Shown: positions 1,633 to 59,876 of the stretch, piece by piece | How the letters are laid out: each line of letters opens with the position of its first letter | Position numbering within the stretch: the first letter of the stretch is position 1 | UHGV virus genome: UHGV-0342645 | Source: a virus | DNA length: 59,919 nt | Strand: one strand, 5' to 3' | Notes under the pieces: model-generated | What the model saw: the letters and a program-made list of their open reading frames with translations, nothing else | Databases searched by the model: none | What the model was told of the DNA's origin: nothing | Made by a program: the position numbers and the translations under genes

Positions 1633-3192
1633 TTAAATACCGATAGTTTTACCAACACCTGTATAAACAGCTTGATCCAGAACCATATAACGTACTTCAT
1701 CCCCCATATGGTCTTCGCATTCCGTATCAACGTCGTCCTGATCTACTTCATCGCGCGGAAGACTTGGAACCAGCTCAAAGAAATAATTGCAATTATCGAA
1801 AACATACATTGCTGGATTTTCACGTGGTCCCGGCAAAGGTTTACCGTTTGCATCTTCCCGCAACGCGGCTTTAAGAAACTCACGCATTTTCTGCCATCCG
1901 CGTTTACGCGACCCAGCAGATTTATCACTTCTCTTCCAATGGATGCCGTTATACAGCTTGCCGTTGAGACGGATTTTCTTCGCCATTGTTGCAGCGGTGG
2001 AGTTATTGTTCTCCAGATCCCAAATAGAATTATCCGCAGGTCCAGGAACTACACGGTCGTGTATGCCCCAGGCCAATTCCCGCTCCAGTATACCGCTTGC
2101 AATCTCTGAGTCCAGCAAATGTAGACCTTCGTTTGTTTTACCGTTAGTGCCGTACCATTCGTTAATACGGAACAAGTCACCGCGTACAGTAGAGAATGTA
2201 GTACCGTCCTCACGTACAACATCCGAACCGTCACTAATAGCCCACCAGCCAACGGAGAATGGTTTTGAAGAACCCCAGTCGAAAGAACGTGTAATCTTCC
2301 AGCTTGATGGGATTGGGAATGGGCGTATTTTATGAACAGTGCTACGCCACAGATCATCGAACATACCGCCGGAGGTGATATCCCAGCTACCGCCTAACCA
2401 TGCAGCTCGTTTGTTCGGATCTGTGATGGACATAAGCTCTGCAATATATTTCGGGCTCAGGTTTTTGTTCTCGCGGTAAGATCCGAAGATATGGCATTGC
2501 GTCGTAACCACATCTTCCTCTTTCTGCGTCCGCGGGTTAAACACTCGCGTAGTTTTCCTGAGTATCTTACCCATCGGTGCAGCATCAATGAAGCGTTTCT
2601 TAACCCAGTTATGCCCCGCACCAAACGGGTTACTGGTAGCAAATACTTCCAGAGGAATGTCTGGTAAATATGTGACAGTACCGTCCGGATCGATAATTGG
2701 ATTATCTTCGGGTAGGAAGGATGAACGGTTACAGGACATCATTGCTTCAAACAAACGCCCGTCCGGATACTTTGTTAATTCGTTCCATCCGATAAACGGG
2801 TATTCGTGACCATGATAAGACCAATAATCCTTTTCTTTGCAAGCAACACGGAACAGCAATTCTTCCCCAGTGGGCCAAACCCATTTATAATCAGACTTCG
2901 AGCTAAGGAATTTAGCACCATCTTTAAATTCAGGGAACCAACGCTGTGATTTGGTTACAAGGTCATCAAGGTTTTTATATTCACGATCGAATATAATACC
3001 CTTCCAGAATTTACCGTACCCTACGCCAACATTCTTACGGAAACGCATAAGCTGGCAGTCCGTCTTTCCAGGACCGCGAGTACCGTGGTATAAAATGATA
3101 TCAGCAGGACAGGATAGAGCGAGTGTCTGTGAACCTGGATGTGGCTTCCAGACTACTCGCGGCATGTTATCAGGTTGTCGGTTTAGCTCCAT
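1633..3192 (-). CDS. terminase large subunit
   Basis: 519 aa; N-terminal P-loop-like GTRGPGKT; overlaps the small-subunit gene; followed by portal. Confidence 0.75.
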   Translation of the reverse strand: MELNRQPDNMPRVVWKPHPGSQTLALSCPADIILYHGTRGPGKTDCQLMRFRKNVGVGYGKFWKGIIFDREYKNLDDLVTKSQRWFPEFKDGAKFLSSKSDYKWVWPTGEELLFRVACKEKDYWSYHGHEYPFIGWNELTKYPDGRLFEAMMSCNRSSFLPEDNPIIDPDGTVTYLPDIPLEVFATSNPFGAGHNWVKKRFIDAAPMGKILRKTTRVFNPRTQKEEDVVTTQCHIFGSYRENKNLSPKYIAELMSITDPNKRAAWLGGSWDITSGGMFDDLWRSTVHKIRPFPIPSSWKITRSFDWGSSKPFSVGWWAISDGSDVVREDGTTFSTVRGDLFRINEWYGTNGKTNEGLHLLDSEIASGILERELAWGIHDRVVPGPADNSIWDLENNNSTAATMAKKIRLNGKLYNGIHWKRSDKSAGSRKRGWQKMREFLKAALREDANGKPLPGPRENPAMYVFDNCNYFFELVPSLPRDEVDQDDVDTECEDHMGDEVRYMVLDQAVYTGVGKTIGI

Positions 3193-3727
3193 CTTCAGTC
3201 TCTTTAACTAGTCGTTGTTGAGACTCGGATGCAGTTTTTTCCCATTCGTCAATATTTGCTACAGCAGGGACTATCATTACGCCGCCTCTGTTAGTAACAT
3301 CAATTTTAGCCTTCTTGGGAGCATCCAAATCATAAATTTGTGCAAGCTTGCCCAATGCGGCTACTCTAGCAGCTTGAGAAGATCCCGGTCCTGTATAATG
3401 AGCTTCACGTTTTAATGCTTCAATGATATGCTGACGCTCTAGGTCTGCTTCAATGTTAGCTTGCTCAGAAGTACGTTGAACACGGGATCTTTCAATCTCC
3501 TTGAGCTTCCATCGAACGTAACAGTCCGTGGCAAAGCGTTGGCCAAGCTCCTGTGCAAACATAGCATTGAACCCGCATCTCATGCAAGCGTTAGTCCAAT
3601 TGTAGTCGAACATATACTCAGCAACAACTTTGTCACGTATTGCCATCTCGTCAGCGGACAAGCTATTTGCATACTGGATATAGTTCGTCCAGTCACGATC
3701 ATATTGCTCTTGACTTGCCCCGTTCAT
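3170..3727 (-). CDS. terminase small subunit (putative)
   Basis: 185-aa ORF directly upstream of and overlapping terL; positional call. Confidence 0.45.
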   Translation of the reverse strand: MNGASQEQYDRDWTNYIQYANSLSADEMAIRDKVVAEYMFDYNWTNACMRCGFNAMFAQELGQRFATDCYVRWKLKEIERSRVQRTSEQANIEADLERQHIIEALKREAHYTGPGSSQAARVAALGKLAQIYDLDAPKKAKIDVTNRGGVMIVPAVANIDEWEKTASESQQRLVKETEDGAKPTT

Positions 3728-3747
3728 GGAAGCTCCCCTTCTTATTG

Positions 3748-4053
3748 CTATTTAGGCTGAATATAATTGCTTGATCCTACAAAATCAAGCGAAACATTTT
3801 CAGCTTCATAGCGTATGATTTCCTTAACCCTTAGCTTACATTCGGTCAGAGCAGTTTCTGTATCCTGTAAACGTCGGATAATATCTCTTGTGTAAACCAA
3901 AGGAATTTTCTCAACTTCCCGACATTCCACCAGTAGATGCGCGGGTAGTCTTACCTTCACTATCTGTGGAGCTGGGGGAGGTTGAGTCTGCGTCGAGCAA
4001 CCTGCGCAAATCATCAGGAATACGCTCGTTAAGATAAGCTTTGACGTCAGCAT
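3748..4053 (-). CDS. o-spanin (Rz1-like outer-membrane lipoprotein)
   Basis: Internal start MLTSKLILTSVFLMICAGCS gives signal peptide plus lipobox Cys; Pro-rich mature part; starts inside the i-spanin gene in another frame and extends past it. Confidence 0.55.
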   Translation of the reverse strand: MLTSKLILTSVFLMICAGCSTQTQPPPAPQIVKVRLPAHLLVECREVEKIPLVYTRDIIRRLQDTETALTECKLRVKEIIRYEAENVSLDFVGSSNYIQPK

Positions 4054-4387
4054 TGCTTTTCTCCAGTGTCTGCAACTTGTCCTGAAGCAACTTGTGGTTA
4101 TGTTGTTCATCTTGAATTGCAGAAGTTAGTTTCTTGAAAGAGTCCGTGTCCTTCTCCCTTTGTGCAGCAAGAAATACAACAGCCTCGCCCAGCTTTGCAT
4201 TGTCTTTCTCCACAACGGTTAAACGTTCTTCAGCCAAACTTAAATTTGATTTGTTAAGCTCGTTCTGTGACCACAGGTAGGCAGCCACCCCGCATAAAAA
4301 CACCACCGCGCCAATCATCAGGTACTCGATAAATAGACGCGGTTTAGCTTTTATAAAACTGAAGAAGTTATTTAGAATCATTTTCAT
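3911..4387 (-). CDS. i-spanin (Rz-like)
   Basis: 158 aa; N-terminal TM segment (LMIGAVVFLCGVAAYLW) then coiled-coil-like charged region; overlaps the embedded lipoprotein ORF; directly downstream of holin. Confidence 0.55.
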   Translation of the reverse strand: MKMILNNFFSFIKAKPRLFIEYLMIGAVVFLCGVAAYLWSQNELNKSNLSLAEERLTVVEKDNAKLGEAVVFLAAQREKDTDSFKKLTSAIQDEQHNHKLLQDKLQTLEKSNADVKAYLNERIPDDLRRLLDADSTSPSSTDSEGKTTRASTGGMSGS

Positions 4388-4712
4388 GTTTGCAGTCCTC
4401 TGAGTCGAGTTTGATCCCTGTCCGCGATGCTAGAAGCGACTTTAGAGCTTTTAGCGTAGCACGTGAACCCGCCCAAGCGAATAGGCCAGCAAGGCCAAAA
4501 GCGAACCAAAGGCTGATATTAAACTCCCTGTAGATCGCGTACATTATAACGCCGAAGAACGCGGCGGATAAGCCTTCAAGACATGCAATGCTTAACCGTA
4601 CTTTCTTACCAGCGTCAATTGTGCGCATGACGTAACCGAGAGCTCCCCCAATGAGGGAAATCAGAGCAAACCCCGCTAGAACTGCCCAATGTTCGTTTGA
4701 TGAGTTGAACAT
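4368..4712 (-). CDS. holin (putative)
   Basis: Internal start MFNSSNEHWAVLAGFALISLIGGALG with GGAGGG RBS; about 3 TM segments and charged C-terminus; sits between the putative endolysin and spanins. Confidence 0.5.
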   Translation of the reverse strand: MFNSSNEHWAVLAGFALISLIGGALGYVMRTIDAGKKVRLSIACLEGLSAAFFGVIMYAIYREFNISLWFAFGLAGLFAWAGSRATLKALKSLLASRTGIKLDSEDCKHENDSK

Positions 4713-4729
4713 GTTCCCTCCAATAAAAA

Positions 4730-4743
4730 GGGGCTGACGCCCC
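4730..4743 (-). terminator. short GC hairpin plus T-run between endolysin-like gene and holin RBS
   Basis: Minus strand GGGGC-GTCA-GCCCC followed by TTTTTATT, immediately upstream of the holin RBS; 5-bp stem only. Confidence 0.3.
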
Positions 4744-4748
4744 ATCAG

Positions 4749-5186
4749 TTAAATTACCATTGCAATAGCGCGGTCGATCACGTCATCAGTATAAGGCATC
4801 ATGCCATTTTCATGACGAATGATTGCTTTCACCAAACCTGACATTATCGTCTTGTCGAAGACATTAATTGGATCGTTGGGTTGAACACCAATTGCTTTGG
4901 CAACAGAACGAATATACGCTTCCGTATCGTTTTCATTAGGCGGAGCCCAGCGAGCGATAATTTCACGTACAGTGTCGATGTTTCTCTTACCCACATTGGG
5001 CAAGCCTTCACGTTTGGTGTAGTTTGTCAGGACTTTCGCCAGAGCGCGGATGCCGTAGATCGGTTGCGTAAATTGCGCAAAAGATTTGTCGGTCCGCTTA
5101 TCAACAGGGACCAATCCCTGCCAATTATCACCCCAGCGAATATTACCTGGATTGTTATTACGAATACCACGAGGTTGAAGCGCCAT
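4749..5186 (-). CDS. putative endolysin (fold unassigned)
   Basis: 146 aa from internal ATG with GGAGGAA RBS; conserved-looking RGIRNNNPGNIRWGDNWQG motif; positioned directly upstream of holin and spanins. Confidence 0.35.
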   Translation of the reverse strand: MALQPRGIRNNNPGNIRWGDNWQGLVPVDKRTDKSFAQFTQPIYGIRALAKVLTNYTKREGLPNVGKRNIDTVREIIARWAPPNENDTEAYIRSVAKAIGVQPNDPINVFDKTIMSGLVKAIIRHENGMMPYTDDVIDRAIAMVI

Positions 5187-5268: not shown

Positions 5269-5529
5269 TTACCCGTCAAACCACTCGCCAATGTACCAGC
5301 TAACAAGACCTTTTCCACCTTTATCGACCCCGTAGCTGGAGTAAAAAGTGAAGTTATCGGGTTCGTGTTGCAGGATAACCATAAAGTCATGCTGAGTGTT
5401 GTCAATAATTGCAATAGCGATTTCCTCGTTATCTGTGATAAAGATTTCGCCACCAATTACAACATGCGTCCCGTGGTCAACTACCTTACTATGATAAGCA
5501 GGTGGGATCAGGTGACTGAATGTAGTCAT
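5269..5529 (-). CDS. hypothetical protein
   Basis: 86-aa ORF tightly packed with neighbours on the early strand. Confidence 0.4.
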   Translation of the reverse strand: MTTFSHLIPPAYHSKVVDHGTHVVIGGEIFITDNEEIAIAIIDNTQHDFMVILQHEPDNFTFYSSYGVDKGGKGLVSWYIGEWFDG

Positions 5530-5994
5530 TTAAAAACCCTCAAATGATATTGTATCAACTCCCAGGAATGCGCATGTGGTGTGTTTAATTGCTAACTCAA
5601 TAGCTTCGCTCGCACTTGCACCAGCAGCTAACGCGCCAGCAGCAAACACACAACCGCTACCCTCAGATCCCCATCCATCCAGCATGGGTTTGCTCAAAGT
5701 ACCATCATTATAAATAAAATGGCAAGTACCTTCCGGAGTAACCGCAAGACCGCAAGTTTGCCCGTAATCATCATCTTTGCTGTAAAGTTTAATATCAGGG
5801 AACTTAACAGGTTCCGCGCTATTAAAATAACGCAACACCTGATCGGTAAATGCTGTAAGGCCGCACAATCCCAGTAAAAACCGTCCACGATGTCCATTTA
5901 CGCTATGAACTTTCTTATAAGCAGTCACAGCTTCCCCGCGCATAACTCCACGGTCCGCAGCTAATACTTTTCCATCAAACGCAATTGTGGTCAT
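5530..5994 (-). CDS. Ntn-hydrolase, HslV/proteasome beta-like protein
   Basis: N-terminus MTTIAFDGKVLAADRG (Thr right after Met, as in HslV TTIVSV) and C-terminal GSEGSGCVFAAGALAAGASASEAIELAIK resembling the HslV GSGG...A segment. Confidence 0.45.
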   Translation of the reverse strand: MTTIAFDGKVLAADRGVMRGEAVTAYKKVHSVNGHRGRFLLGLCGLTAFTDQVLRYFNSAEPVKFPDIKLYSKDDDYGQTCGLAVTPEGTCHFIYNDGTLSKPMLDGWGSEGSGCVFAAGALAAGASASEAIELAIKHTTCAFLGVDTISFEGF

Positions 5995-6176
5995 TTAATT
6001 TTCCTTTGGTCTTGGATAATAACAATGCATAAAACAAATAGAATAAGACAGATACAAAGCCCTGTACTTGCAAAGATTCGGATAACCGTGGAAGGTTGTT
6101 CGACTACTGTATAGGTATAAAGCCCAGCGAACATTAACGTCGCAAATAAAAACAATCCGGCGTATAGTTTGGTCAT
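5991..6176 (-). CDS. small membrane protein
   Basis: 61 aa with two hydrophobic segments. Confidence 0.3.
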   Translation of the reverse strand: MTKLYAGLFLFATLMFAGLYTYTVVEQPSTVIRIFASTGLCICLILFVLCIVIIQDQRKIK

Positions 6177-6238
6177 TGTGTACCCCTCTTATTCGATGGG
6201 TACACAATACAATGAAGGGTTATGTGATAGCAAGGTTT

Positions 6239-6661
6239 TTAATTAAGCACAATCTCAACGTCTTTAACCCAAGTATGAATGATAAATGCTCCTGGCTGTT
6301 CAGGATCTTGATCCGGGCCAACGTAGAACTTTTTACCTTCCCAACCTTTAATTGGGTCATGTACAATAAACTTGTGATTAGTTGTATCGATCACAACCTG
6401 ATGCAGTGCTCCAGGAACATTGAGACTTGGGACAGTGCACAAAAACAAACCACCCATGTATATAGTCTCACGCCCACCGCCTACAGAACAGATGTGGTCA
6501 ACATTGTTTTGTACTAAATATTCGGAAATTGTTATTTCCCAGTTGTTGTAATATCGATCATGAAATTCCGCAATTACTTCTTCTACAGGTCTATTAAGGA
6601 TCATTGCTAGACACGCAGAAACGCATGTATTTAAAGAAGGTTGCTTGACGTGTTTAATCAT
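6239..6661 (-). CDS. papain-like cysteine peptidase, C39-like domain protein
   Basis: QPSLNTCVSACLAMIL matches the C39 Q..(D/N)CG.ACL.MI catalytic-Cys motif; downstream His candidate in HQVVID. Confidence 0.45.
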   Translation of the reverse strand: MIKHVKQPSLNTCVSACLAMILNRPVEEVIAEFHDRYYNNWEITISEYLVQNNVDHICSVGGGRETIYMGGLFLCTVPSLNVPGALHQVVIDTTNHKFIVHDPIKGWEGKKFYVGPDQDPEQPGAFIIHTWVKDVEIVLN

Positions 6662-6662
6662 T

Positions 6663-7133
6663 TTACGCCTCGTATATGACTTCTGGCTCGTTATTATAAG
6701 GACGCAGCAGCAAACGCGCTACCAGCGACGTACGCTTGCTCAACCCTTGCGGATGCACAAACCCAACAAACTGGTAGTGACAACCGCGCAGGTGGTGCAA
6801 ACTCTTAGCACAATGACACGCTTCCAAACGAAGTGTCTCGCCCGACTGCCATTTAACCACAATAGTAGAGCCCGCGATCATGTTAATTTCTACGTCACCA
6901 ATATCTATTTGAAGACGTAAAAGATCTTCTACAACATTACGGACATAGACAAGGATCTGTGATGTGGGCATAACAATAAGCCCGTTCCAGTCTTTCCCGC
7001 GCCCCAAGCCGCAACGACGTGCGAATCTTGATATTAACTGAGTCTCTGTAACCTGTTTTACTTCAAACGACTTCTTCAGTTGGCAGTCTTTGGATTCGTC
7101 CATTGCATCAACAATAGTTTTAACGTCAGCCAT
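6663..7133 (-). CDS. hypothetical protein
   Basis: 156-aa ORF, no recognisable motif. Confidence 0.4.
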   Translation of the reverse strand: MADVKTIVDAMDESKDCQLKKSFEVKQVTETQLISRFARRCGLGRGKDWNGLIVMPTSQILVYVRNVVEDLLRLQIDIGDVEINMIAGSTIVVKWQSGETLRLEACHCAKSLHHLRGCHYQFVGFVHPQGLSKRTSLVARLLLRPYNNEPEVIYEA

Positions 7134-7136
7134 TAT

Positions 7137-7529
7137 TTACTCCGCTAATGTGTAAGGAATACCGGATGCTTTAATCTGTCTGTACATGTCCATAGTACCA
7201 GCTCCGCCCGGAAACACAATAGCGTGATCTGGTTTGGGATCAGTATCCAGCATTAATTGATTGCGGTAAGCGCCAGCTTGTGCATTATAAGCACCTCTGG
7301 CGTTATACCGTATCTTAGTATTCGGTAAGGAAAGATTGTCCCACGGCGCAGGAAACGCCTCCGTCTTAATACCGTTCCGCTCCGCCCAATGTGCGCAAAT
7401 GCGGTCAACACCGTCAGCGTCACCGTGGCGAAGTGTGGTTATCCTTCTTTGCATATGCAGCTTATCCAATTGAGCATAGATATACTCCACATTCTTAAAA
7501 TTACGACCTCCGGTAACAACTAATAGCAT
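7137..7529 (-). CDS. SLOG-superfamily protein (DUF2493/YpsA-like)
   Basis: LLVVTGGR N-terminus, HGDADGVD and FPGGAGT motifs typical of DUF2493-type Rossmann-like proteins. Confidence 0.4.
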   Translation of the reverse strand: MLLVVTGGRNFKNVEYIYAQLDKLHMQRRITTLRHGDADGVDRICAHWAERNGIKTEAFPAPWDNLSLPNTKIRYNARGAYNAQAGAYRNQLMLDTDPKPDHAIVFPGGAGTMDMYRQIKASGIPYTLAE

Positions 7530-12209: not shown

Positions 12210-12545
12210 CTATTTAAGATAAAGATTTTCAATCATATCGTTTTTCGGGTCGTTAATATACTTCCCGAAGACAGCTTTCTTACCCTGCGGCCCGTGGAAC
12301 ATTTCGTACACAATACGGGTCCGTAACACTTTACGGTTTTCCCCGCCACAAATTGGAGCAAGACTAATCCTAGCTTGCAGATGAGCAGCGCATATATCCT
12401 TAGCTTCGTCACCTTTAGTTATGCCATATTTTTTAAAAGACTTCTTCCAGAATAAATCCCCGTCGCGGTATTCAAAATATTTATTCCAATTAGGTTCCTT
12501 CTTCCACCAGTGCTTTTCATAATCCCATTCAAGGCTCATAGTCAC
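12210..12545 (-). CDS. HNH/NUMOD-like homing-endonuclease relic (degenerate)
   Basis: C-terminal RTRIVYEMFHGPQGKKAVFGKYINDPKNDMIENLYL follows the HNH_3 pattern (HRLV..F.GNP...VNHIDGNK.NN..NL) but lacks the catalytic His; opposite strand to flanking genes. Confidence 0.3.
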   Translation of the reverse strand: MTMSLEWDYEKHWWKKEPNWNKYFEYRDGDLFWKKSFKKYGITKGDEAKDICAAHLQARISLAPICGGENRKVLRTRIVYEMFHGPQGKKAVFGKYINDPKNDMIENLYLK

Positions 12546-12754
12546 TCCTCTTGATGATTTAATTTGCGCGCGCTACGTAAGACAGCCTCCTTAGACTTGT
12601 TATCGCGGCTGCGGCTACCCGTGTTACCGGACCGCTGCAATAACTCCTCTCTGCCTTAACGCAGATTATAGCTTGATATACCTTCCGATCACAATAGTTC
12701 AATAAATTTGCCTCAAAAGCACTTGACTTCTCGTTTTTGATCTGCATCCGTTCA

Positions 12755-13230
12755 GGTTTATGAAAGTTTATAGAGTTTATATTGTGAAGTATAAACAATC
12801 ACATAATACCAATAGGTACTATATACATTAATAATAAATCCTTATTTTATATATATTTATAGTTATTATTAATATTAGTTTAATTTGGTTTATTTTAGTT
12901 AGTTGACTGAAAGTTTATAAGTTTATAGGGGTATACTCCCAACTTTTTTCAGATAATTAATAGTATAGTAGTGATAGTGGTTTTTGCACGTTTTCACTAC
13001 TACTACTAATTATTTGTTTGAAAAGGGGGTAATAAGGGGAAACCGTAAACTTATAAACTTTGCTCTGTGTAAAAATAAAAAATTAGTGAATAGTGAGATA
13101 GTGGTTCATAGTGGCAAACTTTTACAAAGCGAGTAACGACGCACTATACACATTTTGCCCACTATGTACGCCACTAAGCACTATATTAAAACAATCCTTG
13201 CAAATAGCTAATGTCTGTTTTATAGTGGCT
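12755..13230. repeat. AT-rich iteron-like repeat region (GTTTATA and ATAGTG/CACTAT motifs)
   Basis: GTTTATA copies at ~12756, 12766, 12775, tandem AGTTTATAAGTTTATA at 12912-12927, inverted copy at 13047-13059; at least 8 ATAGTGG/CACTAT-type motifs between 12960 and 13230; no credible ORF. Confidence 0.6.
13198..13226 (+). promoter_or_regulatory. sigma70-type promoter for the rightward operon
   Basis: TTGCAA-17 nt-TATAGT, about 28 nt upstream of AGGAGG RBS and the ATG at 13254. Confidence 0.55.
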
Positions 13231-57891: not shown

Positions 57892-58953
57892 TTAGGAACC
57901 CTGATACTCACGAGTGATCAGGCGTGCGACTTTAAGCTGCTTGCGCTCAAGGAACGCACGACGCCAGGAATCTTCATGGGCCAGGTTGTTAGTGGTAGCA
58001 GCGTTAGACGGACCACCTTTAGCAGTTTGGGCAGCAGCCCAAGCATGACCGACCGGATGCAGAATCCATTCAACACGGTTGTGAAGAACTTCTTCACCAG
58101 CACCATTGTTAGCAGCTTCGTCACGAACCACAGCGGTCGGAACTTTTGGTGAACCAGCACCCATTGCAGTCGCGCCCGGGCCGAACAGCCAGCTTTCAAA
58201 GATACCAGTAGACGGATCGTGCGGCATGGAGTCGTCTTCAATAATACGCAAACCCTGATAATACTCGAACTGAGTTTCACCGCGAGCATCCGGAATGAAG
58301 TCGATCAGGTTCAGCTGACGCATACGATTACGAACGGTAGAGTGTACCATAATCATGGTCAGACCACGAGCAGCATCACCCATCGTTGCAGTTGCGTTGA
58401 TGAAGTTAGACGCGGTAAAGTTGGTCTGGTTGTTTACAAATGAAGAACCGGAAATATCGAACGTCAGATCGTCCGAATGGGATTTCTTGGCATTAGCAAA
58501 TACACCTTTCCAGGTTGCAATGTATGCAGCTTGCAGACGGCGAACCCACCACGCAGACACGCGATTACCGATAGCGGTCATTGGGTCGTTACCAATCAAA
58601 GCAGATACCAGATCCGCAGAACCCCAGGATTTTGAGCGACTCATACGAACCTGAACTTCAGATCCGGTAGTGATGTTTGACGGTTTGGACGGAGCACCTT
58701 TATCGATCGCAATATCTTCGTCTTCGTCTTTCAGGTCATTATAGAACGGCTCGTTAAAAGTCAAACCTGCACCAGCAAGGTTAGCAGATAAACGCTCGTC
58801 CATTACAACTGCACCGGATTGAATCAGAGCAGAAAGTTCAGCGGTCTGCGTCTGCACATAACCAGTGAAGATTTCAGGGACGATCACGTCAGCCAAACGA
58901 GTCAGGTCACTGTCACCACGACCAAATGGCAGAATAATTTTAGATTTAGACAT
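57892..58953 (-). CDS. major capsid protein
   Basis: 353-aa ORF between scaffold and the capsid-proximal terminator; followed by decoration and connector genes. Confidence 0.65.
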   Translation of the reverse strand: MSKSKIILPFGRGDSDLTRLADVIVPEIFTGYVQTQTAELSALIQSGAVVMDERLSANLAGAGLTFNEPFYNDLKDEDEDIAIDKGAPSKPSNITTGSEVQVRMSRSKSWGSADLVSALIGNDPMTAIGNRVSAWWVRRLQAAYIATWKGVFANAKKSHSDDLTFDISGSSFVNNQTNFTASNFINATATMGDAARGLTMIMVHSTVRNRMRQLNLIDFIPDARGETQFEYYQGLRIIEDDSMPHDPSTGIFESWLFGPGATAMGAGSPKVPTAVVRDEAANNGAGEEVLHNRVEWILHPVGHAWAAAQTAKGGPSNAATTNNLAHEDSWRRAFLERKQLKVARLITREYQGS

Positions 58954-59075: not shown

Positions 59076-59876
59076 TTATTTCTTAGCAGGACGTACAGGC
59101 TTCAGTGGGTCTACGCCATTCTTTTCAGCTAAACGTTTAGCTAAAGATTGGTTAGTTTTCCAGAGATTCATCTGCTTAGAGATGTTCCAACCGTCGTGAC
59201 TGTATGGATCTTCACCGTGATGGCCACCCGCGCCCGGACCAGATGCACCACCACCAGCAGATCCTTCAACCCAGTGCGGACGTTTCGGAAGGATTTCGTT
59301 CAGCCAGTCCGCCGGAGTTAGGTAAGGAGTTACACCAGCCCCATCTTTCGTAACCACATTACCGTTCTCGTCGACAGTCATTTGCAACTGCGCATAAGTT
59401 ACAGCGTCTTCGATAGCAGATGGACGCAATTTAGCACCAGAAGCAGCGGCAATAACTGCATCTTTAATCTTCGCTTTAGTTTCGCGAGTGCGGTAGCCTT
59501 CAATTTCCTGCTTAACCGTGTCACGCTCGGCGATAACAGTTTGCAATTGACGCTCGAGCGGCGCAAGACGGGCTTTGACCATCTTCTCAATGTCTTCCGG
59601 ATTGCCTTTACCGTTAGCAGCAGCTTCCAGCTCAGGGATACGATCCAAATCCGCCAGGACTTCTTCAACTGGACGCCCCAGTGCGCTAATTTGTTGTTTC
59701 ACCTGACGATGATCGTTACGCTCTTTTGCTAACGCACTTTCCAGACGACGAACGCTATCAGCAGGTGCTACACCTTTGACTTTTGCAAGAACGTATTTAC
59801 CGCCCTGCTCTGCGTAAAGAGTTGCAAATTCCGCTGGGATTTCTTCCGCAGATGCGTACTCGTATTGTAATTCCAC
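59076..59876 (-). CDS. head scaffolding protein (5' end lies across the window junction at 29..1)
   Basis: Acidic coiled-coil-rich ORF directly upstream of the capsid gene; track start is a GTG, in frame with ATG at 29. Confidence 0.5.
   Translation of the reverse strand: MELQYEYASAEEIPAEFATLYAEQGGKYVLAKVKGVAPADSVRRLESALAKERNDHRQVKQQISALGRPVEEVLADLDRIPELEAAANGKGNPEDIEKMVKARLAPLERQLQTVIAERDTVKQEIEGYRTRETKAKIKDAVIAAASGAKLRPSAIEDAVTYAQLQMTVDENGNVVTKDGAGVTPYLTPADWLNEILPKRPHWVEGSAGGGASGPGAGGHHGEDPYSHDGWNISKQMNLWKTNQSLAKRLAEKNGVDPLKPVRPAKK

Follow-up and report, generated by a model that had tools for sequence, protein, structure and literature searches.

Three predicted accessory enzymes of known families encoded upstream of the lysis genes in a Seuratvirus-type phage

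What do three neighboring genes with enzyme-like signatures encode in an E. coli phage, and do they act early, late, or together? The genes are found in UHGV virus genome UHGV-0342645, a stretch of 59,919 nucleotides hereafter called the window, which derives from a Seuratvirus-type (Queuovirinae) E. coli phage with 92–97% nucleotide identity to Seuratvirus genomes. A sequence-only reading of positions 5269–7529 had recognized an HslV-like hydrolase, a C39-like peptidase, and a SLOG protein, and described them as an unusual set of early genes. Our analysis upholds the family identities of the three enzymes, but not the early timing. The ORF list places six tightly packed minus-strand genes in this interval (Table 1), with intergenic gaps of 3, 1, 62, and 0 nt and one 4-nt overlap. 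Co-oriented and almost gap-free, these six genes are probably co-transcribed. The cluster ends 82 nt upstream of the endolysin gene, and the calls made for the lysis and terminase context (3170–5186) agree with the annotations of KS_W4, CSP1C, and CAjan.

Table 1. Genes of the six-gene cluster and of the downstream lysis and terminase context in the window.
Feature	Position	Strand	Basis
SLOG-superfamily protein, YAcAr family, 130 aa	7137-7529	-	Pfam PF10686, phrog_289
156-aa protein, function unassigned	6663-7133	-	phrog_25149
Stand-alone C39-like papain-fold cysteine peptidase, predicted, 140 aa	6239-6661	-	phrog_4049, fold, conserved residues
61-aa protein, two hydrophobic helices	5991-6176	-	ORF, phrog_22841
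Orphan proteasome-beta/HslV-fold N-terminal-threonine hydrolase, predicted, 154 aa	5530-5994	-	AF2, Foldseek, hhalign, phrog_1040
86-aa ORF, last gene before endolysin	5269-5529	-	phrog_23528
Endolysin	4749-5186	-	phrog_873, E 4e-63
Holin	4368-4745	-	phrog_785, E 4e-24
Spanin-like genes	3911-4387 and 3748-4110	-	Downstream lysis context
Small terminase (TerS)	3170-3727	-	Downstream context

Every motif string quoted in the sequence-only reading is present in the minus-strand ORF translations. The string MTTIAFDG forms the N-terminus of the HslV-like protein. The AF2 model of this protein has a pLDDT of 95.3 and adopts the alpha-beta-beta-alpha sandwich of the Ntn fold. A Foldseek comparison of the model with the PDB gave 158 matches at E <= 1e-3; HslV, BPH, and 20S beta subunits rank at the top (probability 1.0, TM 0.6–0.7). 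The family profile reaches PDB HslV chains (E 3e-8 to 3e-5) and aligns with E. coli HslV in hhalign with 93.9% probability (E 1.6e-7). In this alignment, phage residues T2, D14, K28, G42/G45, and Gly112-Ser113-Gly114 correspond to Thr1, Asp17, Lys33, Gly45/48, and the GSG of E. coli HslV; the equivalence of the catalytic residues is based on such alignments. M1, T2, D14, G45, G112, and G114 show no variation among 18 relatives with identities of 30–73%, and the protein is matched by phrog_1040 (‘peptidase HslV family’, E 1e-31). The model and alignments support the prediction of a proteasome-beta/HslV-fold hydrolase with aligned catalytic residues, in agreement with the family first guessed.

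The phage protein shares its Ntn fold with HslV (ClpQ), which is grouped in MEROPS T1 with the proteasome beta subunits and beta-proteobacterial BPH, and no solved family comes closer to it than HslV in sequence-profile searches. Like E. coli HslV, the phage chain begins with Met-Thr-Thr and carries no propeptide. The two proteins nevertheless differ in several respects. Their identity is just 16–20%, and the phage protein is approximately 20 residues shorter, with one long helix (47–58) followed by a loop in a region where HslV is more helical. It also belongs to a separate phage family, phrog_1040, and its HslU partner is not encoded in the window or near the fetched relatives. A tblastn search of the window with E. 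coli HslU gave a best E of 1.1, and phmmer recovered only E. coli’s own gene among all ORFs of about 160 fetched loci. As no HslU homologue was found in the window or these loci, we refer to the gene as an orphan.

The C39-type motif, QPSLNTCVSACLAMIL, spans residues 7–22 of the C39-like protein, for which the key residues are Gln7, Cys13 (plus Cys17), His87, and Asp102. Among 98 sequences, H87 and D102 are invariant, while Q7 and C13 are kept in at least 90%. The four residues align with the Q/C/H/D of 6mpz. The structural model is of high confidence and has a papain-like fold nearest to C39 domains, and phrog_4049 matches the protein with an E of 4e-55. A C39-type papain fold with conserved Gln/Cys/His/Asp, as originally suspected, is supported as a prediction from this model and the alignments. 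The known comparators are the C39 domains of bacteriocin/peptide ABC exporters (PCAT1, ComA, AMS/PCAT double-glycine protease) and the cytosolic C39 toxin StbD-CT. In contrast to these, the phage protein is free-standing rather than fused to a transporter or toxin-delivery domain, and its relatives are likewise stand-alone proteins of 125–184 aa. It is a member of a separate family, phrog_4049, and is only 13–18% identical to its structural matches. Across 33 non-redundant loci, no partner or substrate gene family recurs beside the C39-like genes in more than four, nor does any transporter or double-glycine leader peptide.

One could also propose that the C39-like protein is a cell-wall endopeptidase that helps in lysis or entry, in the manner of the PeiR/PeiW pseudomurein endoisopeptidases or of C39-like wall hydrolases. 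We regard this as very improbable. The 140-aa sequence contains neither an N-terminal hydrophobic segment nor an extra wall-binding domain, a separate endolysin is already encoded, and in other phages the gene is not located beside lysis genes. Furthermore, both the best sequence and structure matches and the Q-x5-C...H...DP motif point to double-glycine peptidase domains.

The strings VTGGR, HGDADGVD, and FPGGAGT all occur in the SLOG ORF, where they make up the motifs GGR (7–9), G36-x-A38-x-G40-x-D42, and PGGxGT (107–112). The protein scores 65.8 bits against Pfam YAcAr (PF10686; gathering score 28.2, E 3e-18), and all 70 of its aligned relatives also match this model. It is additionally matched by phrog_289 (E 7e-23). 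Membership of the DUF2493/YAcAr family, which had been proposed before, is therefore supported at the level of sequence. Residues G7, R9, G36, D42, Y81, G86, R89, N90, and G111 are invariant in the 70 sequences, with Y81, G86, R89, and N90 being specific to the family; G8, A38, G40, G108, and T112 are kept in at least 90%. YAcAr (DUF2493) is related within the SLOG superfamily to YpsA, DprA, LOG, and the SLOG domain of Thoeris ThsA. The phage protein resembles YAcAr in passing the gathering score and possessing Gly-rich loops, but it is not fused to a Macro, NADAR, or Nudix domain. No solved SLOG/YAcAr-family homologue was retrieved by sequence search of the PDB, the best match being the molybdenum-carrier-like protein 3imk (E 0.058). 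The phage protein falls within the population of viral SLOG domains for which sensing or degradation of ADPR-type immune signals has been predicted (PMC9503650). The suggestion of a nucleotide-signal role is hence not new, but a published prediction for viral SLOG domains (PMC9503650).

Standard domain models recover the two proteases poorly, as would be expected if their signatures were chance motifs or decayed remnants that lack enzymatic function. The HslV-like protein scores 15.4 bits against Pfam Proteasome (PF00227; cut-off 22.4) and the C39-like protein 14.5 bits against Pfam C39 (PF03412; cut-off 22), the latter over residues 3–24 only. Neither is matched by NCBIfam, which includes an HslV model, and single-sequence searches of the PDB returned nothing meaningful for these two or for the SLOG protein; profile and fold comparisons alone were productive. 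The Pfam C39 model is reached at E <= 0.01 by eight of the 98 C39-like relatives. Set against this are the high-confidence models, in which both proteases show the expected folds with the catalytic residues aligned, and the invariance of those residues among relatives with identities of about 30%. The three enzyme genes are also under strong purifying selection, with dN/dS values of 0.04–0.11 relative to phage CAjan (0.04 for the HslV-like gene, 0.075 for the SLOG gene). Structure, conservation, and dN/dS effectively refute the chance or decay explanation, which we consider extremely improbable.

The annotation is thus correct, but it is largely already catalogued and concerns known families. 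Two of the three genes are already so labelled in RefSeq and Pharokka-style annotations. To call the enzymes unusual was an overstatement: the C39-like family is present in 191 phage records, including Ackermannviridae, Vibrio, and Pseudomonas phages, and the SLOG family comprises 5793 clusters at 50% identity. PADLOC, which covers known defence systems, gave no match for the three enzymes. Our literature searches turned up no study on the function of these phage genes, no paper linking Seuratvirus with HslV, and none on ‘HslV-like’ with phage; the few mentions of phage HslV or DUF2493 are in annotation lists.

The cluster had been assigned to an early arm, a label that is not supported. The replication genes (primase, helicase, ligase, polymerase, and DpdA-like transglycosylase) form the plus-strand arm at 11.5–39 kb, and the six genes lie on the opposite arm. 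From the cluster, that arm continues through endolysin, holin, spanins, TerS, TerL, and portal, with the head genes across the window ends. In the related phage 9g, the corresponding arm is described as a late morphogenesis and lysis region (PMC4276943). Between 2500 and 12500, 20 promoter-like sites were detected against 20.2 expected, as were 11 terminator-like sites against 8.7 expected. As these scans are at chance level, timing is unreadable from the sequence. The claim of early timing is accordingly wrong or unproven.

This location invites the opposite proposal, that at least one of the two proteases works in the late programme, either by processing virion or scaffolding proteins where a classical prohead protease is lacking or by processing or regulating lysis proteins. 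Consistent with this, the cluster immediately precedes the endolysin, holin, spanin, and terminase genes, and HslV-like genes of unrelated phages are found immediately upstream of TerS, TerL, or portal genes. Among 68 non-redundant HslV-like loci, the most frequent same-strand neighbor families are two TerL families (17 and nine loci), TerS (11), and portal (11), and in one unrelated lambdoid-like contig the gene is between holins and TerS. A Pfam scan of 107 ORFs downstream of HslV-like genes identified many of the portals as P22-like or SU10-like, and prohead-protease families are absent from the 25 most frequent of the 39 matched Pfam families. The window itself encodes portal, scaffolding protein, and major head protein in succession with no protease gene between them. 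Nonetheless, P22-like systems that use a scaffold require no protease, and cargo genes are commonly located immediately before the terminase. Isolate 9g is viable with its HslV-like gene broken into two ORFs, though the gene is intact in JenP1 and HdK1, and the C39-like gene is found in settings that are nin-like or otherwise non-structural. The trio also diverges much faster than TerL, which is atypical of core morphogenetic enzymes. On balance, we judge a late-programme function to be unlikely. A role for the cluster in the lysis suppression of CSP1/CSP1C was considered and rejected, given that published mapping assigns this trait to genes of the tail-fibre region.

Distribution bears on whether the three enzymes form a single functional module, in which, for example, the SLOG protein would sense or remove a nucleotide signal while the proteases target a common host pathway or each other. 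One variant of this idea is a counter-defence set that is effective only in combination. The three genes are adjacent, in differing orders, in Seuratvirus, Craquatrovirus, and one uncultured relative. In locus L130 the order is C39-SLOG-HslV with 4-nt overlaps, and in Providencia phage PSTCR7 it is SLOG-C39-HslV; translational coupling in both, and the persistence of adjacency through three gene orders (Seuratvirus, L130, Craquatrovirus), argue for a module. The same is true of about six further C39-like loci from an unrelated lambdoid-like lineage, where an HslV-like gene is present 3.5–5.6 kb downstream, far above the viral-contig base rate. However, all adjacent cases come from one related clade and are explained by shared ancestry for that reason. 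The trio proteins of L130 and PSTCR7 are 28–40% identical to those of the window, compared with 67% for TerL; the trio is inherited together, yet is evolving fast.

Beyond this clade, the genes mostly occur alone, which makes an obligate three-gene module unlikely. Within 8 kb, 78 HslV-like loci lack a C39-like gene and 61 C39-like loci lack an HslV-like gene, so that the partner is absent from most loci of either kind. A SLOG gene is near either protease in only two loci outside the Seuratvirus-related clade, and in Nonagvirus the C39-like and HslV-like genes are retained but a neighboring SLOG gene is absent. The two proteases of the lambdoid-like contig belong to separate modules, the C39-like gene being in a nin-like region and the HslV-like gene in a late operon. 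No fusions among SLOG, C39-like, and HslV-like domains were observed in the 292 collected proteins. We therefore consider a single functional module, including its combination-dependent variant, to be rather unlikely. The long SLOG proteins in this set of 292 consist of tandem SLOGs or have extensions of other kinds.

The explanation that we prefer, to which we assign about an even chance of being right, is that these are three separately acting accessory enzymes directed against host proteins, metabolites, or defences, which are co-inherited but do not constitute one obligate machine. The folds, catalytic residues, selection, layout, and distribution are shown by the results above, and what we say of substrates, targets, timing, and any cooperation is inferred. 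The trio are predicted to be genuine cytoplasmic enzymes; they are maintained by purifying selection and co-inherited in a variable region just upstream of the lysis cassette of Queuovirinae-like phages. As in HslV, host methionine aminopeptidase would expose Thr1 of the HslV-like protein, a minimal hydrolase of its fold, and the active site would comprise Thr1, Asp, and Lys together with the Gly and GSG loops. Since no ATPase partner is encoded, this protein may work alone on peptides or unfolded proteins, or may borrow host HslU. For the C39-like peptidase, a Cys-His-Asp triad and an oxyanion Gln make up the predicted active site; if it behaves as C39 enzymes do, it may cleave behind a Gly-Gly-type motif, with one or a few particular proteins of the cytoplasm as targets. 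Through its GGR, GxAxGxD, and PGGxGT loops, the SLOG protein would bind and possibly cleave a ligand that is a nucleotide or derives from ADP-ribose.

Several observations sit less comfortably with this preferred explanation. Placement beside lysis and packaging genes, along with the recurrent location of HslV-like genes just upstream of terminase or portal genes in unrelated phages, also fits a late role in morphogenesis or lysis. In addition, adjacency despite changed order in three genera could mean functional coupling, counter to separate action. The lack of PADLOC matches and the shortfall of about 20 residues in the HslV-like protein relative to HslV also count against it. A more specific proposal, which we consider quite improbable, is that the trio is a counter-defence island. 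In this case, the orphan HslV-like ring would dock onto the host HslU unfoldase and retarget it. The C39-like protein would serve as a Gly-Gly deconjugase or clipper, with ubiquitin-like conjugation defences (type II CBASS Cap2, Bil) or a host enzyme such as GyrB as possible targets. The SLOG protein would sequester or cleave cyclic-ADPR-type signals (Thoeris).

If the enzymes are host-directed, two of them would be new phage tools: a proteasome-type threonine protease that has no ATPase of its own or borrows that of the host, and a minimal C39 peptidase that cuts a protein instead of a leader peptide. The HslV-like and C39-like families are widespread in phages. As a result, a single experiment in an E. 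coli phage (CAjan, BASEL Seuratviruses) would help to annotate hundreds of genes. The SLOG gene likewise provides a simple test case for the published prediction that viral proteins interfere with ADPR signals (PMC9503650).

The remaining three ORFs of the interval were left unnamed in the sequence-only reading. None of the five ORFs neighboring the SLOG gene has a Pfam match above threshold, and the sole PADLOC match among the six proteins is a non-significant one to the 86-aa ORF (E 0.039). The 156-aa protein is matched by phrog_25149 (E 9e-105), to which no function is attached, and gave no matches in Pfam, NCBIfam, PADLOC, or PDB sequence searches. It is confined to Seuratvirus-like phages (dN/dS 0.09 relative to CAjan), and L130 and PSTCR7 have no such gene between the enzyme genes. 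The 86-aa ORF is matched by phrog_23528 (E 8e-49) and is annotated as gp87 in CAjan and unannotated in KS_W4. Its gene status is the weakest of the six, because its dN/dS is 0.76 on few substitutions. The 61-aa gene, which matches phrog_22841 (no known function), occurs solely in Seuratvirus loci, and its stop overlaps the start of the HslV-like gene by 4 nt.

The HslV-like, C39-like and SLOG genes are carried by what appears to be a complete genome, about 60 kb long and circularly permuted. The 2261-bp stretch that contains them matches more than 30 genomes of Seuratvirus (Queuovirinae) at 92–97% identity, those of KS_W4, CAjan, Seurat, slur01, CSP1 and several BASEL phages among them. All motifs quoted for the three genes in the sequence-only reading were found in minus-strand ORFs within 5269–7529, a stretch that holds six ORFs rather than three. 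The catalytic signatures also held up: profiles and structure models confirm both proteases structurally, with their catalytic sets intact. The spacings between the six ORFs (3, 1, 62, -4 and 0 nt) fit one transcription unit. From its start near 10.9 kb, the minus-strand arm passes through a series of small genes to the cluster. Past the endolysin and holin lie two spanin-like ORFs, then TerS, TerL and portal, and across the window ends the scaffolding, major head and tail genes.

Features of the window, with the product names that the counterparts of the cluster ORFs carry in phage CSP1C
Feature	Position	Strand	Details	Name in CSP1C
Replication arm	~11.5–39 kb	plus	primase, helicase, ligase, SSB-like protein, exonuclease, DpdA-like transglycosylase, clamp, DNA polymerase	
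SLOG ORF	7137–7529	minus		threonine-tRNA ligase
156-aa ORF	6663–7133	minus		DprA
C39-like ORF	6239–6661	minus		T3SS chaperone
61-aa ORF	5991–6176	minus	hydrophobic, two helices (membrane ORF)	cysteine protease
HslV-like ORF	5530–5994	minus		
86-aa ORF	5269–5529	minus		ATP-dependent protease subunit HslV
Endolysin	4749–5186	minus	downstream of cluster	
Holin	4368–4745	minus	downstream of endolysin	
Portal	125–1621	minus		
Scaffolding protein	59076–59876	minus	across window ends	
Major head protein	57892–58953	minus	across window ends	

The dN/dS values relative to CAjan (SLOG 0.075, C39-like 0.108, HslV-like 0.041) indicate that all three are working genes. Within Seuratvirus, the C39-like gene is a mosaic allele, as its dS relative to CAjan is 0.98, compared with 0.05–0.40 in neighbouring genes and 0.07 in the adjacent HslV-like gene. 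Protein identities agree with this: of the 40 phage records holding the HslV-like protein, 34 have it at 95% identity or more, the C39-like protein is just 80–90% identical in 28 records, and the allele of the window recurs at 99% identity or more in only five. The coding status of the 86-aa ORF is uncertain given its dN/dS of 0.76.

The HslV-like protein is matched weakly by Pfam Proteasome (15.4 bits, below threshold) and by PHROG 1040 (‘peptidase HslV family’) with an E-value of 1e-31. Its 18 relatives, down to 30% identity, all start with Met-Thr and keep D14, G45, G112 and G114; nearly all have Lys at position 28. AlphaFold2 models the protein with confidence (pLDDT 95.3, pTM 0.90). The model's top Foldseek matches in the PDB (probability 1.0, TM 0.6–0.7) are to HslV of several bacteria, to BPH, the proteasome homologue of beta-proteobacteria, and to beta subunits from archaea and eukaryotes. 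The family profile finds HslV chains in the PDB at E-values of 3e-8 to 3e-5. Using hhalign, it aligns with E. coli HslV (93.9% probability, E 1.6e-7), pairing Thr2 with Thr1, Asp14 with Asp17, Lys28 with Lys33, Gly42/45 with Gly45/48, and Gly-Ser-Gly 112–114 with the GSG loop. In contrast to HslV, the phage protein is about 20 residues shorter, in the helical layer, and HslU was found neither in the window nor in any of about 160 collected loci. On the basis of these fold and profile matches, the shorter chain and the absence of HslU, the protein is filed as a predicted proteasome-fold Thr-Ntn hydrolase nearest to HslV, not as HslV proper. In phage 9g (locus L157, NC_024146), the gene is split into two ORFs (5774–5989 and 6016–6267), of which only the second, of 83 aa, has a RefSeq label; in JenP1 (gp82) and HdK1 the gene is unbroken. 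The split reflects either an error in sequencing or a true disruption in a phage that is viable.

Pfam C39 matches the C39-like protein over residues 3–24 only (E 0.032), and its PHROG family (PHROG 4049) has no functional label. Profile searching recovered a family of 128 proteins, mostly of 130–180 aa and on phage-sized contigs. In an alignment of 98 members, H87, D102 and P103 are invariant, and Q7, C13 and C17 occur in at least 90%. The structure model is confident (pLDDT 97.1), and in the profile alignment the family's Q, C, H and DP line up with their counterparts in the double-glycine protease 6mpz. Unlike classical C39 domains, the phage protein has no transporter fusion, and no conserved neighbour that could serve as a leader-peptide substrate was found beside the C39-like genes. 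A recent preprint provides a precedent, a C39 domain that is cytosolic and has a protein as its target; the phage family shares the pattern described there. The family occurs in 191 very diverse isolated phage genomes, among them Seuratvirus, Nonagvirus, Ackermannviridae, and phages of Vibrio, Pseudomonas, Klebsiella and Erwinia.

The SLOG protein exceeds the threshold of Pfam YAcAr (PF10686) at 65.8 bits, as do all 70 of 70 relatives. This family is very large (5793 clusters at 50% identity, E ≤ 1e-3), with conserved Gly-rich loops and invariant family-specific Y81, G86, R89 and N90; sequence searches detected no solved structure. Iyer and colleagues found SLOG domains in 7% of small, 19% of medium and 31% of jumbo phages, and predicted that they serve to sense or degrade immune signals of the cyclic-ADPR type by cleavage (PMC9503650). 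The earlier suggestion that the protein binds nucleotide signals thus restates a published prediction. At one collected locus (L152), a minus-strand ORF of more than 870 aa (2–2620), which runs off the locus end, holds a YAcAr SLOG domain at a distance of about 5 kb from the C39-like gene there and may encode a large multidomain (polyvalent-type) protein.

The three genes are linked within one related clade, and the link fades outside it. In an uncultured 61-kb contig (L130), C39-like, SLOG and HslV-like genes with 4-nt overlaps precede endolysin, holin and spanins; in Providencia phage PSTCR7 (Craquatrovirus), overlapping SLOG, C39-like and HslV-like genes precede lysis-like genes and TerL. 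The Nonagvirus order (9g, JenP1, HdK1) is C39-like, one or two unrelated small genes, HslV-like and lysis genes, with no SLOG gene at the locus. TerL identity between the window and PSTCR7 is 67%, which marks the clade phages as relatives; the three proteins are only 28–40% identical. The neighbourhood is an inherited one with fast-evolving proteins. Outside the clade, C39-like genes are missing within 8 kb at 78 HslV-like loci and HslV-like genes are missing at 61 C39-like loci; a SLOG gene lies near either protease at only two loci. About six contigs carry both proteases 3.5–5.6 kb apart. One of these (L125), from a lambdoid-like phage, has a TerL without detectable similarity to that of the window and keeps them in separate modules: C39-like in a nin-like region, HslV-like (12442–12876) between holins and TerS. 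No domain fusions among the three were found. We conclude that they are co-inherited accessory genes; that they form an obligate three-part machine, as their overlaps within the clade might suggest, is unlikely.

All three proteins fall into known superfamilies and into phage families that are already catalogued, and public records already label two of the genes ‘peptidase HslV family’ and ‘GTP-binding domain’; the paper searches found no functional study of these phage genes. On present evidence, the trio is not a new kind of system. What is new is the structural confirmation of the two proteases, the finding that the HslV-like gene is an orphan, the size of the stand-alone C39-like family and how widely it is spread, and a neighbourhood beside the lysis cassette that is conserved yet reshuffled. 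The trio is of moderate interest, as its functions are easy to test.

The cluster had been read as early, a timing for which we found no sequence sign. The published account of phage 9g places the arm with these genes under late functions, morphogenesis and lysis, and has it transcribed from one of two promoters that diverge (PMC4276943). The typical place of the HslV-like gene in unrelated phages is just upstream of packaging genes: at 68 non-redundant loci, the gene families found most often on the same strand within 3 kb are two TerL families (17 and 9 loci), TerS (11) and portal (11), and the portals are often P22-like or SU10-like. No prohead-protease family ranks in the top 25 by frequency of 39 Pfam families in the ORFs downstream, and no such gene is recognisable between the portal, scaffolding and major head genes of the window. 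This proximity, these portal types and this absence keep alive the possibility that one or both proteases serve late morphogenesis or lysis, in line with the 9g assignment; however, 9g, a viable isolate, has a split HslV-like gene, the proteins are quick to diverge, and we consider such a role unlikely. At the IMG/VR HslV-like loci (L005–L082), the gene usually directly precedes TerS, TerL or portal.

Scans for sigma-70 promoters and intrinsic terminators were at chance level as a whole. The best promoter-like match in the 10-kb region (5405–5378, minus; TTGACA, 16 nt, TATGGT, 10/12) is within the 86-aa ORF and precedes the endolysin start by about 190 nt. A GC-rich hairpin with a T-run (GGGGCGTCAGCCCC TTTTTATTGG; 4743–4730, minus) at the endolysin-holin junction falls within the first codons of the holin ORF.

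Some public records merit care. In CSP1C (locus L002, PQ202980, 2221–4481), product names are apparently shifted by one gene. KS_W4 (locus L001) is annotated with a 213-aa endolysin (1010–1651; compare 4749–5186 and 5269–5529 in the window), whose N-terminal extension overlaps part of the 86-aa ORF, itself not annotated there; CAjan is annotated with a 145-aa endolysin and the 86-aa ORF. ‘Aeromonas phage SD04’ (MH230177) is 96.5% identical to E. coli phages over the whole of 5269–7529, and its host label, Aeromonas schubertii, is odd for a Seuratvirus.
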